The translations under genes were made by a program, and so were the position numbers. Positions 43,975 through 46,416 of a stretch of 64,000 bases of DNA are shown piece by piece; the stretch's first letter is position 1; every line of letters begins with the position of its first letter. Below the pieces are notes generated by a model. That model saw only the letters and a program-made list of their open reading frames with translations. It made no database searches and had not been told where the DNA came from. Source of the stretch: Escherichia coli (GTDB lineage: Bacteria > Pseudomonadota > Gammaproteobacteria > Enterobacterales > Enterobacteriaceae); NCBI RefSeq assembly GCF_003334765.1, contig NZ_QOWT01000012.1, one strand, 5' to 3'.

Positions 43975-46416
43975 ATGTCACAAGATCCTTTCCAGGAACG
44001 CGAAGCTGAAAAATACGCGAATCCCATCCCTAGTCGGGAATTTATCCTCGAACATTTAACCAAACGTGAAAAACCGGCCAGCCGTGATGAGCTGGCGGTA
44101 GAACTGCACATTGAAGGCGAAGAGCAGCTTGAAGGCCTGCGTCGCCGCCTGCGCGCGATGGAGCGCGATGGTCAACTGGTCTTCACTCGTCGTCAGTGCT
44201 ATGCGCTGCCGGAACGCCTCGACCTGGTGAAAGGTACCGTTATTGGCCACCGTGATGGCTACGGCTTTCTGCGGGTTGAAGGGCGTAAAGATGATTTGTA
44301 TCTCTCCAGCGAGCAGATGAAAACCTGCATTCATGGCGATCAGGTGCTGGCTCAGCCGCTGGGTGCTGACCGTAAAGGTCGTCGTGAAGCGCGTATTGTC
44401 CGCGTACTGGTGCCAAAAACCAGCCAGATTGTTGGTCGCTACTTTACCGAAGCGGGCGTCGGCTTTGTGGTTCCTGACGACAGCCGTCTGAGCTTCGATA
44501 TCTTAATCCCGCCCGATCAGATCATGGGCGCGCGGATGGGCTTTGTGGTCGTAGTCGAACTGACTCAGCGTCCGACTCGCCGCACCAAAGCGGTGGGTAA
44601 AATCGTCGAAGTGCTGGGCGACAATATGGGCACCGGCATGGCGGTTGATATCGCTCTGCGTACCCATGAAATTCCGTACATCTGGCCGCAGGCTGTTGAG
44701 CAACAGGTTGCCGGGCTGAAAGAAGAAGTGCCGGAAGAAGCAAAAGCGGGCCGTGTTGATCTGCGCGATTTACCGCTGGTCACCATTGATGGCGAAGACG
44801 CCCGTGACTTTGACGATGCAGTTTACTGCGAGAAAAAACGCGGCGGCGGCTGGCGTTTATGGGTCGCGATTGCCGACGTCAGCTACTATGTGCGTCCGTC
44901 AACGCCGCTGGACAGAGAAGCGCGTAACCGTGGCACGTCGGTGTACTTCCCTTCGCAGGTTATCCCGATGCTGCCGGAAGTGCTCTCTAACGGCCTGTGT
45001 TCGCTCAACCCGCAGGTAGACCGCCTGTGTATGGTGTGCGAGATGACGGTTTCGTCGAAAGGCCGCCTGACGGGCTACAAATTCTACGAAGCGGTGATGA
45101 GCTCTCACGCGCGTCTGACCTACACCAAAGTCTGGCATATTCTGCAGGGCGATCAGGATCTGCGCGAGCAGTACGCCCCGCTGGTTAAGCATCTCGAAGA
45201 GTTGCATAACCTCTATAAAGTGCTGGATAAAGCCCGTGAAGAACGCGGTGGGATCTCATTTGAGAGCGAAGAAGCGAAGTTCATTTTCAACGCTGAACGC
45301 CGTATTGAACGTATCGAACAGACCCAGCGTAACGACGCGCACAAATTAATTGAAGAGTGCATGATTCTGGCGAATATCTCGGCGGCGCGTTTCGTTGAGA
45401 AAGCGAAAGAACCGGCACTGTTCCGTATTCACGACAAGCCGAGCACCGAAGCGATTACCTCTTTCCGTTCAGTGCTGGCGGAGCTGGGGCTGGAACTGCC
45501 GGGCGGTAACAAGCCGGAACCGCGTGACTACGCGGAGCTGCTGGAGTCGGTTGCCGATCGTCCTGATGCAGAAATGCTGCAAACCATGCTGCTGCGCTCG
45601 ATGAAACAGGCGATTTACGATCCAGAAAACCGTGGTCACTTTGGCCTGGCATTGCAGTCCTATGCGCACTTTACTTCGCCGATTCGTCGTTATCCAGACC
45701 TGACGCTGCACCGCGCCATTAAATATCTGCTGGCGAAAGAGCAGGGGCATCAGGGCAACACCACTGAAACCGGCGGCTACCATTATTCGATGGAAGAGAT
45801 GCTGCAACTGGGTCAGCACTGTTCGATGGCGGAACGTCGTGCCGACGAAGCAACGCGCGATGTGGCTGACTGGCTGAAGTGTGACTTCATGCTCGACCAG
45901 GTAGGTAACGTCTTTAAAGGCGTAATTTCCAGCGTCACTGGCTTTGGCTTCTTCGTCCGTCTGGACGACTTGTTCATTGATGGTCTGGTCCATGTCTCTT
46001 CGCTGGACAATGACTACTATCGCTTTGACCAGGTAGGGCAACGCCTGATGGGGGAATCCAGCGGCCAGACTTATCGCCTGGGCGATCGCGTGGAAGTTCG
46101 CGTCGAAGCGGTTAATATGGACGAGCGCAAAATCGACTTTAGCCTGATCTCCAGCGAACGCGCACCGCGCAACGTCGGTAAAACGGCGCGCGAGAAAGCG
46201 AAAAAAGGCGATGCAGGTAAAAAAGGCGGCAAGCGTCGTCAGGTCGGTAAAAAGGTAAACTTTGAGCCAGACAGCGCCTTCCGCGGTGAGAAAAAAACGA
46301 AGCCGAAAGCGGCGAAGAAAGACGCGAGAAAAGCGAAAAAGCCATCGGCGAAAACGCAGAAAATAGCTGCAGCGACCAAAGCGAAGCGTGCGGCGAAGAA
46401 AAAAGTGGCAGAGTGA
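43975..46416 (+). CDS. rnr: ribonuclease R
   Basis: ORF 43933..46416; start trimmed to [19 protein letters not shown]; RNB domain, S1 domain, Lys-rich basic C-terminal tail. Confidence 0.93.

Follow-up and report, generated by a model that had tools for sequence, protein, structure and literature searches.

Several roles have been published for the basic C-terminal tail of RNase R. It raises the affinity of the enzyme for RNA, makes the proteolysis of RNase R subject to SmpB-dependent control, and recruits the enzyme to ribosomes rescued by tmRNA-SmpB for the decay of non-stop mRNA (PMC3949413). Together with the S1 domain, it also binds polyphosphate (PMC12345225). The limits of this basic domain have been set at residues 731-813, or at 724-813 going by the 723 truncation. 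SAXS has described the tail as flexible and hinted at contacts with the catalytic core (PMC3949413), three disorder predictors place the 'basic domain 731-813' above 0.5 (PMC12345225), and in cryo-EM of RNase R the tail is without density. The K-rich domain is absent from RNase II (PMC3949413).

A second body of work concerns REP sequences and the BIMEs in which they are combined. A REP is an imperfect extragenic palindrome of about 35 nt, with the conserved tetranucleotide GTAG/CTAC at the foot, and recurs many times in a genome. BIME-1 is defined by y and z1 REPs in inverted arrangement around a long and well-conserved L linker with an IHF site, in one non-tandem copy, and at many loci the number and type of BIMEs vary from strain to strain (PMC3333891). 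Intercistronic REP structures are known as mRNA stabilizers, as in malE-malF (Newbury et al. 1987). More generally, stable stem-loops stand just before the 3' ends of E. coli mRNAs and shield them from PNPase and RNase II; where the transcript is Rho-dependent, 24% of these ends are associated with a REP (PMC6061677).

Both subjects meet at the rnr locus studied here. The window is the whole stretch of Escherichia coli DNA that was analyzed (64,000 nt of contig NZ_QOWT01000012.1), and its rnr ORF corresponds to the annotated rnr of MG1655 (4406654-4409095). Codon 736 begins at 46180, and the TGA stop occupies 46414-46416. From 46380 to 46620, the window aligns without a difference to E. coli K-12 MG1655, and the encoded protein is the K-12 RNase R studied in PMC3949413. 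The region probably holds two ordinary features side by side, the basic tail of RNase R and a BIME-1 in an intra-operon spacer, both of known kinds and already described (Table 1).

Table 1. Features of the rnr-rlmB region in window coordinates, with the basis of each assignment.
Feature	Position	Strand	Basis
rnr CDS (RNase R, 813 aa, b4179)	43975..46416	+	ORF coordinates, MG1655 annotation
Residues 735-750, shown in published work to govern ribosome recruitment and non-stop decay (E740, K741, K749, K750)	46177..46224	+	PMC3949413
C-terminal basic (K-rich) tail, residues 736-813, and stop codon	46180..46416	+	Composition, AlphaFold2, charge-hydropathy, literature
Conserved island N762-R770 (NFEPDSAFR) in tail	46258..46284	+	Conservation, 52 Enterobacterales loci
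Conserved island K786-K809 in tail	46330..46401	+	Conservation; overlaps low-confidence predicted helix 792-812
Stem-loop ACCCTCTT-TAAAAG-AAGAGGGT, without U tract	46422..46443	+	Inverted repeat I3, fold
BIME-1 left flank (AGATTGCTGACAAAATGCGCTTTGTTCAT)	46445..46473	+	Alignment with satP-mog and fepA-entD copies
REP1, y type (GCCGGATGCGGCGTGAACGCCTTATCCGGCCTAC)	46474..46507	+	Exact y-type match, fold
Long RNA hairpin (REP1 3' half, L linker, REP2 5' half)	46495..46555	+	Inverted repeat I1, fold
L linker with putative IHF-like core ATTCAATATATTG at 46520-46532	46508..46542	+	Alignment of three copies
REP2, z1-like, inverted (GTAGGCCGGATAAACGTAGTGCATCAGGC on + strand)	46543..46571	-	REP tail motif, alignment
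rlmB, next gene of the operon	46596..47327	+	ORF list, MG1655 annotation
Intrinsic terminator after rlmB (stem 47342-47371, then T run)	47342..47377	+	Terminator scan

The rnr-rlmB spacer of 179 nt contains a short native stem-loop and then one BIME-1. The first-pass annotation had placed a REP pair 58 nt after rnr, and REP1 does begin at the 58th base past the stop. It had also let the BIME follow rnr directly, which is not exact, as a predicted 9-bp hairpin stands between the stop codon and the repeat. The pair itself had been given as 46474..46572; the two REPs are real, but the repeated unit begins at about 46445 and REP2 covers 46543-46571.

The hairpin nearest to the gene is built on a perfect 8-bp inverted repeat, begins 5 nt past the rnr stop and folds at -12.5 kcal/mol (z = -3.6). 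Its stem is conserved, with an altered loop, in E. albertii and in a short E. coli allele of the spacer. Stable hairpins just past rnr are common in the spacers of Enterobacterales (median z = -2.8 vs -0.07 for control segments inside rnr), and a T run follows the homologous hairpins of Superficieibacter, Phytobacter and two other genomes. In the window, the stem is followed by TAGATTGC, which is not a U tract; the terminator scan did not report the hairpin, and the E. coli tables of PMC10687069 call no 3' end at 4409100-4409199. Because U tract and called 3' end are both absent, the hairpin was rejected as an intrinsic (Rho-independent) terminator or a detectable 3' end.

Judged by its sequence, the element that comes next is a BIME-1 with a degenerate z1 REP. 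The window contains four matches to the y-type REP with at most three mismatches (0.00 expected by chance) and eight matches to the REP tail motif TTATCMGGCCTAC (0.07 expected), which occurs here once on each strand, at 46495-46507 (+) and 46543-46555 (-). The same unit of flank, y REP, L linker and z1 REP recurs at satP-mog and fepA-entD, and sequences that include the BIME, used as queries, hit a median of at least 39-40 places per E. coli genome. Across the three copies REP1 is invariant and the L core GCAAATTCAATATATTGCA nearly so, as the fepA-entD copy departs from it by one base. REP1 is predicted to form a hairpin of -21.3 kcal/mol (z = -4.25) whose foot ends in CCTAC. The z1 REP differs from the z1 copies elsewhere at three positions, one of these substitutions breaking its own stem, and the hairpin it can form alone is weak (-6.2 kcal/mol, z = -0.9). 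As a whole, the BIME folds with z = -6.9 and the spacer with z = -9.0.

The likeness to BIME-1 (RIB/RIP elements) thus extends to the inverted y and z1 REPs, the 35-nt L linker with its AAATTCAATATATTGCA core, the single, non-tandem copy and the extragenic position by a gene end. Apart from the substitutions in z1, the copy differs from others in that the common right-hand flank is missing or diverged, and in being flanked on both sides by genes of the same operon instead of following the last one. A search of Rfam returned no family at threshold in the spacer; ES036/CssrF at 46508-46550 reached 30.6 bits, below its gathering score of 37.6, and naRNA4 reached 38.2 bits, below its threshold of 59.5. 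REPs within about 15 nt of a stop codon reportedly stall terminating ribosomes, a finding attributed to Liang, Rudd and Deutscher in 2015. Membership of this class was rejected, since REP1 begins 58 nt past the stop and the nearer hairpin is not a REP.

Between the REPs, the BIME can form a long hairpin over the L linker, with an inverted repeat of 19 nt that is 95% complementary; segment 46490-46558 is predicted to fold at -30.2 kcal/mol. A 3' terminus maps to 46558 (peak 46554-46562; MG1655 4409233-4409241, dominant 4409237), which is inside the BIME and 3 nt past this hairpin. It was called in term-seq data of strain BW25113 re-analyzed by TRS ('E. coli - Dar and Sorek' sheet, PMC10687069 Supplementary Data 2), where it is significant in three replicates with a signal of 0.89. 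The sheet appears to use MG1655 coordinates, as its purA and rlmB termini agree with other data and with a predicted terminator. The stronger 3' end is the one after rlmB, at 47375 (4410047-4410056, dominant 4410054), which has a signal of 1 in both E. coli data sets of PMC10687069; the end in the BIME was not called in the second of the two. The tables examined from the supplement of Adams et al. 2021 (PMC7815308) give neither rnr nor rlmB a 3' end, and they list none at 4409000-4409299 or 4410000-4410099 either. The SMRT-Cappable-seq supplements do not mention rnr or rlmB.

According to Conway et al. 2014, rnr and rlmB form one operon, and rlmB lies directly 3' of rnr in 71 of 80 gammaproteobacterial loci. 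The BIME is inside this conserved operon and not at the end of a transcript. The first-pass annotation had spoken of the 3' end of the transcript at the REP pair, but the transcription unit does not stop with rnr. As in malE-malF (Newbury et al. 1987) and among the protective stem-loops of PMC6061677, the structure is an intercistronic REP structure; like the latter, it has a steady-state 3' end a few nucleotides past a stable stem-loop without a U tract. It differs from both in the predicted barrier, which is not one REP stem here but an inter-REP hairpin spanning the L linker.

A mechanism can be proposed on this basis. The transcribed BIME would fold mainly into the long hairpin (46495-46555), together with the REP1 stem. 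Where a transcript is terminated or cut downstream, 3'->5' exonucleases would shorten it until about 3 nt remained beyond the hairpin, at 46558. The outcome would be a stable mRNA ending after rnr beside read-through transcripts ending at the 47375 terminator after rlmB. The long hairpin would then be the cause of the 46558 end, and it may alter the expression of rnr relative to rlmB. The idea that the REP pair could stabilize the 3' end of the transcript, for which 3'-end mapping had been proposed as a check, fits the end at 46558, which is inside the BIME and not downstream of it; it fits less well with that end coming from one data set and with the further, stronger terminus downstream at 47375. 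A protective role of the BIME is therefore plausible, on correlative grounds.

It is quite possible, though, that the BIME-1 came in as a neutral or selfish repeat and serves no selected function here. The 46558 end would then be incidental to any stable hairpin, and regulation, if there is any, would fall to the native hairpin at 46422-46443 or to the rlmB terminator. The degenerate REP2 is in keeping with such an origin, as are the strain differences in BIME number and type at many loci. Among 5426 complete E. coli genomes, 1582 (29%) carry the short allele, a 90-nt rnr-rlmB spacer with a single, different REP. Spacers of Vibrionales and Alteromonadales are mostly 0-42 nt long, and other Enterobacterales have non-homologous hairpins at the same place; since the hairpins of these other genera are unrelated to it, this BIME can be dispensed with. 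On the other hand, 71% of E. coli genomes keep the element at an identity of at least 95%, and E. albertii has a BIME-1 at the same site. There, a single position sets the z1 REP apart from the other copies, and one base pair of the long hairpin is changed in a compensatory way (46503 C>T, 46547 G>A). The discrete 3' end inside the element also argues for a role, and a neutral origin would in any case be compatible with an effect on the mRNA.

The 46558 end could also arise without trimming, if transcription terminated or were attenuated at the BIME through Rho or through pausing at the hairpin; the element would then mainly lower rlmB transcription rather than stabilize rnr mRNA. Attenuation of transcription associated with BIMEs is known, going by the mention of Espeli et al. 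2001 in PMC6061677, and the TRS signal of 0.89 means that few reads start immediately downstream. This origin of the end nevertheless seems rather unlikely: neither hairpin has a U tract after its stem, the end after rlmB is strong in both data sets, and the two genes make up one operon. Moreover, just 38 nt separate the 3' end from the start of rlmB, which leaves little untranslated RNA for the loading of Rho.

The element may also act mainly at the DNA level. IHF bound to the L linker, perhaps joined by gyrase or Pol I on the REPs, would then organize local supercoiling between convergently loaded transcription units, and any effects on RNA would be secondary. The near-invariance of the L core among the copies speaks for this, and by inspection ATTCAATATATTG agrees with the IHF consensus WATCAANNNNTTR at 12 of 13 positions, which makes it a putative site. 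However, a search of the L linker for the exact IHF consensus did not find it, and the RNA 3' end would be left unexplained, so that we regard a primarily DNA-level function as unlikely.

A negative feedback loop between rnr mRNA and RNase R is a more adventurous proposal, to which we give little credence. The removal of hairpin ends of this kind in E. coli is mainly the work of RNase R and PNPase and follows polyadenylation. The rnr mRNA would end in the REP/BIME hairpin with about 3 unpaired nucleotides; at low RNase R activity the BIME-terminated rnr mRNA would build up, and at high activity the same mRNA would be cleared. If this were true, rnr would be uncoupled from rlmB expression in the strains with the BIME allele.

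The protein at the upstream side of this element is RNase R by family assignment. It scores above cutoff against the NCBIfam equivalog NF008648 (1788.5 bits, cutoff 982) and against TIGR02063 (963.6 bits, cutoff 597.85; match ending at residue 725). The Pfam matches (HTH_12 23-83, OB_RNB 87-144, CSD2 164-238, RNB 260-587, S1 641-724) give the order HTH, CSD1, CSD2, RNB, S1 expected for RNase R, and the tail lies beyond all these domains and beyond TIGR02063. RNase II (rnb), the RNB-family paralogue, has the CSD-RNB-S1 core in common with RNase R (structure matches 1e-45; NCBIfam), but the alignment with RNase II structures and models ends at RNase R residue 720, and the tail has no counterpart there.

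In composition, the 78-residue tail (736-813) stands apart from the rest of the enzyme. It consists of 32.1% K, 20.5% A and 7.7% R, together 60% vs 20.5% in residues 1-735, and it holds 25 of the 57 lysines of RNase R (hypergeometric P = 7.6e-13). Its net charge is +24 vs -15 for residues 1-735, and hydrophobic residues make up 7.7% vs 34%. With a K+R content of 40%, it is a Lys/Arg-rich, net-positive segment C-terminal to S1. The crystallized construct comprises residues 87-725, the tail having been removed for crystallization. Composition, domain limits and crystal construct all bear out the earlier view of a tail dominated by K, A and R and separate from the nuclease fold. There is no difference from the K-rich or basic domain of the literature (Ge et al. 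2010; PMC3949413; Liang & Deutscher 2010-2012; PMC12345225): it is the very same sequence. Tails of at least 20 residues past S1 occur in 97 of 148 diverse RNase R representatives, 74 of these 97 combining a K+R content of at least 25% with a net positive charge. All 80 gammaproteobacterial RNase R proteins (E. coli and 79 loci) have a tail of 45-124 residues with 31-47% K+R.

The sole addition made here concerns conservation. Across Enterobacterales, the best-conserved parts of the tail are N762-R770 and K786-K809, and not the alanine-scanned residues 740, 741, 749 and 750. In 52 loci of this order, each position of N762-R770 is about 75-98% identical, while the scanned residues reach just 13-46%; G735-K736-T737 are at least 90% identical. 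The exact NFEPDS is found in 38 of the 52 Enterobacterales loci vs 1 of 27 other gammaproteobacterial loci, and a literature search for FEPDSAF gave no match. Within N762-R770, 42% of the codons for identical residues are synonymous variants, vs 53% in the S1 domain. A constraint at the DNA level behind the islands was rejected, because their synonymous codon turnover (0.42-0.52) equals that of S1 (0.53). Since conserved islands lie inside it, the tail is not purely low-complexity; of the first-pass wording, 'basic' can be kept and 'low-complexity' needs this qualification. Deletion of residues 751-813 left non-stop mRNA decay unaffected, for which reason the islands may be considered as possible partner-binding motifs. 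As a companion to the feedback loop, NFEPDSAFR (762-770) and K786-K809, islands specific to Enterobacterales, would be undescribed motifs of this kind, a proposal that we hold to be just as doubtful as the loop.

By prediction and by the literature, the tail is an intrinsically disordered polycationic extension appended to the S1 domain. The disorder prediction that had been proposed as a check was already published with this result, and the AlphaFold2 model computed here, built with a 72-sequence alignment, agrees. Its pLDDT is 29-48 across 741-813, below 50 for 744-796 and 806-813 and above 90 in the body, and in the charge-hydropathy plot of Uversky the tail falls on the disordered side. 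A folded domain instead, such as a helical RNA-binding module, is scarcely credible and was rejected: AlphaFold2/DSSP draws a helix at 792-812, SAXS suggested the contacts with the catalytic core and the two islands are under purifying selection, but the pLDDT is low throughout, helix included (about 48), hydrophobic residues are few, and published predictors, SAXS flexibility, absent cryo-EM density and the truncated crystal construct all speak for disorder.

Beyond correct annotation, the overall significance of the locus is slight, the BIME being a textbook repeat. The tail is among the best-studied of the disordered basic extensions that govern where and when a bacterial nuclease acts, through trans-translation, proteolytic turnover and polyphosphate binding. 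For specialists, N762-R770 and K786-K809 are its most conserved parts and lie outside the residues mutated so far. The natural polymorphism between the BIME and the short allele (about 71% vs 29% of E. coli) offers a ready test of the effect of REP sequences on the rnr:rlmB ratio.

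The locus has the gene order purA, nsrR, rnr, rlmB, yjfI. A 601-nt query running from the end of rnr to the start of rlmB found matches in 5,426/5,426 complete E. coli genomes, many of them at 100%, and the segment 46380-46620 aligned to MG1655 with no differences (the NC_000913.3 coordinate is the window coordinate plus 4,362,679). The rnr product scores 1788.5 bits against NF008648, an equivalog model for RNase R whose cutoff is 982, and carries the Pfam domains HTH_12, OB_RNB, CSD2, RNB, and S1, the last of which ends at residue 724. The mechanical rnr ORF is 14 codons longer upstream (43933-43974; GTG start, 827 aa), reaching into the end of nsrR; in MG1655, rnr is annotated from the ATG at 43975, and the NCBIfam model aligned from residue 1 of this 813-aa form.

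Features of the rnr-rlmB region and of the remainder of the window
Feature	Coordinates	Strand	Remark
rnr	43975-46416		813 aa
RNase R basic tail	46180-46416		residues 736-813
Tail island N762-R770	46258-46284		NFEPDSAFR
Tail island K786-K809	46330-46401
Post-stop stem-loop	46422-46443		perfect 8-bp inverted repeat
Common left flank of repeated unit	46445-46473
REP1	46474-46507	+	y REP
Inter-REP hairpin	46495-46555		predicted RNA fold
L linker	46508-46542
REP2	46543-46571	-	degenerate, z1-like
rlmB	46596-47327
Short allele example	L002 618-707		E. coli APEC E956; vs window 46445-46571
y+z REP pair	10630-10728		linker differs from L linker
y+z REP pair	11931-12030		linker differs from L linker
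Single REP-like match	27825-27837
Single REP-like match	53279-53312
tRNA, truncated by window start	1-59	-	Rfam, above threshold
Guanidine-II (mini-ykkC) riboswitch	14244-14290	+	Rfam, above threshold
Two tandem tRNAs	29793-29976	+	Rfam, above threshold
RpsF leader	62357-62441	+	Rfam, above threshold

The first-pass annotation had described a separate, Lys/Ala-rich basic tail of RNase R, and frame, composition, charge, and lysine enrichment all bear this out. Codon 736 begins in frame at 46180, and the 78 residues from there to the stop contain 32% K, 20.5% A, and 7.7% R (K+A+R 60% vs 20.5% in the remainder of the protein), with a net charge of +24 and 7.7% hydrophobic residues vs 34% elsewhere; 25 of the 57 lysines of the whole protein are found here (hypergeometric P = 7.6e-13). 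None of the Pfam and TIGR02063 profiles extends over the tail, and 5XGU, the sole crystal structure of E. coli RNase R, covers residues 87-725. In an AlphaFold2 model based on a 72-sequence alignment, the body has a mean pLDDT of 89, with most blocks >90; the values are 56 at 731-740, 45 at 741-750, and 29-48 over the rest of the tail, whose only predicted secondary structure is a low-confidence helix (792-812). A charge-hydropathy plot classes the tail as disordered and the body as ordered. The disorder prediction proposed as a check is answered by published predictors, since the "basic domain (residues 731-813)" has a disorder propensity >0.5 in NetSurfP-3, Metapredict, and IUPred3; together with S1, this region binds polyphosphate via its lysines (PMC12345225). 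The "K-rich domain" is flexible by SAXS, non-stop mRNA decay tolerates truncation of the protein at residue 750 but is impaired when it is cut back to 735 or 723, and recruitment to tmRNA-rescued ribosomes needs E740/K741 and K749/K750 (PMC3949413). The tail, already the subject of substantial literature, is therefore a known, characterized, disordered polycationic extension.

Of 148 diverse RNase R representatives carrying an S1 domain, 97 continue for 20 residues or more beyond it, 74 of these 97 combining K+R of at least 25% with a net positive charge, and a quarter of the 148 are essentially tail-less (at most 9 residues after S1). All 80 gammaproteobacterial sequences (E. coli and 79 loci) have tails of 45-124 residues with 31-47% K+R and a net charge of +15 to +33. 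Composition is far more widely conserved than sequence, the pattern that a disordered region would be expected to show. Over 52 Enterobacterales loci, three islands are mostly 80-99% identical (G735-K736-T737, N762-R770, and K786-K809), and the stretches between them differ in length and sequence. At residues identical to E. coli, synonymous codon differences amount to 42-52% in the islands vs 53% in the S1 domain, and with this normal turnover the constraint lies on the protein rather than the DNA. The motif NFEPDS is present in 38/52 Enterobacterales loci and in 1/27 other loci, and is absent from the diverse representatives except for an E. coli fragment; the islands are specific to Enterobacterales. 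The alanine-scan residues 740/741/749/750 are only 13-46% identical, far below the islands. A full-text literature search for the island motif found no paper, and we regard the islands as a small lead rather than a discovery.

Downstream of the tail, the BIME was said to follow directly, which is inexact, and rnr does not lie at a transcript end. A native stem-loop (9 predicted pairs, -12.5 kcal/mol, z = -3.6) begins 5 nt past the rnr stop and intervenes before the BIME. No U tract follows it in E. coli; E. albertii and the short E. coli allele keep the stem but have a different loop. Operon maps from RNA-seq assign nsrR, rnr, and rlmB to a single operon (PMC4161252; PMC3534368), and rlmB lies immediately downstream of rnr in 71/80 gammaproteobacterial loci. 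Most Enterobacterales have a spacer of 45 to 306 nt, and most Vibrionales and Alteromonadales one of 0 to 42 nt. Since the two genes are near-contiguous in most of the Vibrio, Photobacterium, Pseudoalteromonas, Alteromonas, and other genomes L049-L080 (computed spacer -1 to 42 nt, except for two Vibrio with 102 and 165 nt), a long, structured spacer seems characteristic of Enterobacterales. The first 70 nt of the longer spacers usually form a stable hairpin (median MFE -21.4 kcal/mol, median z -2.8), with z below -2 in 37/57 vs a median z of -0.07 for control segments inside rnr, and the hairpin sequences are unrelated from genus to genus. In four enterobacterial genomes (L007, L016, L017, L022), the sequence homolog of the E. 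coli hairpin leads into a T run and is terminator-like; two extra ORFs come after rnr, and no rlmB homolog was found within roughly 1.4 kb downstream.

The proposed REP pair itself stands well above chance. REP1 is an exact y-type REP, with four matches of at most three mismatches in the window vs 0.00 expected, and the window has eight matches to the REP foot motif vs 0.07 expected, two of them at 46495-46507 (+) and 46543-46555 (-). REP1 has a predicted fold of -21.3 kcal/mol (z = -4.25), and REP2 alone a weak one (-6.2 kcal/mol, z = -0.9). In genomes without the rnr-rlmB copy, the query still finds matches elsewhere, with about 88% identity. Two of these, the satP-mog and fepA-entD copies, when aligned, reveal that the repeated unit exceeds the two REPs and consists of a left flank, a y REP, a linker of 35 nt whose core, GCAAATTCAATATATTGCA, is near-invariant, and a z1 REP. 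This matches the published definition of BIME-1, namely y and z1 with a long conserved L linker, often with an IHF site, in single copy (PMC3333891). Unlike those two copies, the rnr-rlmB copy carries three substitutions in the z1 unit and lacks the usual right flank. The IHF-like linker core agrees with the consensus at 12/13 positions, with no exact match found in the linker. Rfam gave only sub-threshold matches in the spacer (ES036/CssrF on the linker, naRNA4 on REP1). The linker region 46508-46550 aligns over the full length of ES036 (CssrF sRNA, 43 nt) at 30.6 bits vs a gathering score of 37.6, so what this Rfam "sRNA" family describes may be the hairpins of BIME-1 linkers. Both the tail and the BIME are already known kinds of feature.

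The long inter-REP hairpin runs from the 3′ half of REP1 through the L linker into the 5′ half of REP2, with a predicted energy of -30.2 kcal/mol for 46490-46558 and -43.5 kcal/mol with the REP1 stem added. E. albertii has a BIME-1 with a near-canonical z1 unit at the same site, and its inter-REP hairpin differs by one compensatory pair change (46503 C>T with 46547 G>A). RNase II, PNPase, and RNase R reportedly cannot engage a 3-nt overhang without polyadenylation, findings attributed to Cheng and Deutscher in 2005 and Vincent and Deutscher in 2006. A re-analysis of the Dar & Sorek term-seq data (TRS paper, Supplementary Data 2) lists a terminus at 4409237, window 46558 (signal 0.89; adjusted P 1.3e-12, 1.2e-11, 0), labeled "alternative primary in TU, rnr", and a second at 4410054, window 47375 (signal 1), assigned to rlmB; the RNAtag-seq sheet ("Barsheshet") has only the rlmB terminus (PMC10687069). 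The suggestion that the REP pair stabilizes the rnr 3′ end is therefore upheld in part, with one end inside the BIME and the signal-1 end after rlmB. The coordinate frame was checked with the purA terminus (4406079/80), which agrees with Adams et al., and with the rlmB terminus, which lies within the T run of a predicted terminator at 47342-47371. Position 46558 is 3 nt past the predicted long hairpin, and ends just past a stem-loop have been reported across the genome where stem-loops are protective (PMC6061677). Further termini lie inside nsrR at 43553 (4406232; Adams et al.) and, by RNAtag-seq, inside the 5′ part of rnr at 44098-44113 (4406777-4406792, signal 0.43). They hint that transcripts may be terminated prematurely or processed, either ahead of rnr or in its early part.

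The reading with the most support has the BIME working as an intercistronic barrier to 3′→5′ exonucleases or as a weak attenuator. The main rival holds that it is a neutral insertion and the 46558 end incidental. The K-12-type BIME (at least 95% identity) is present in about 71% of complete E. coli genomes, and the rival is favored by the short allele, a 90-nt spacer with the hairpin and just one REP, different in sequence, in 1,582/5,426 genomes (29%), as well as by hairpin turnover from genus to genus. Both readings could hold at once. RNase R and PNPase are the enzymes reported to degrade REP-containing mRNA, and RNase R might thereby feed back on its own expression by clearing the REP-protected rnr mRNA; we give this reading a low probability, as its support is general rather than specific to the locus. 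As a barrier or attenuator, the BIME would give rnr-ending mRNA species alongside read-through nsrR-rnr-rlmB transcripts. The analysis establishes the repeat family, the folds as predicted, the operon context, and one published 3′ end; we infer that the long hairpin causes the 46558 end and that it may have an effect on RNase R levels.
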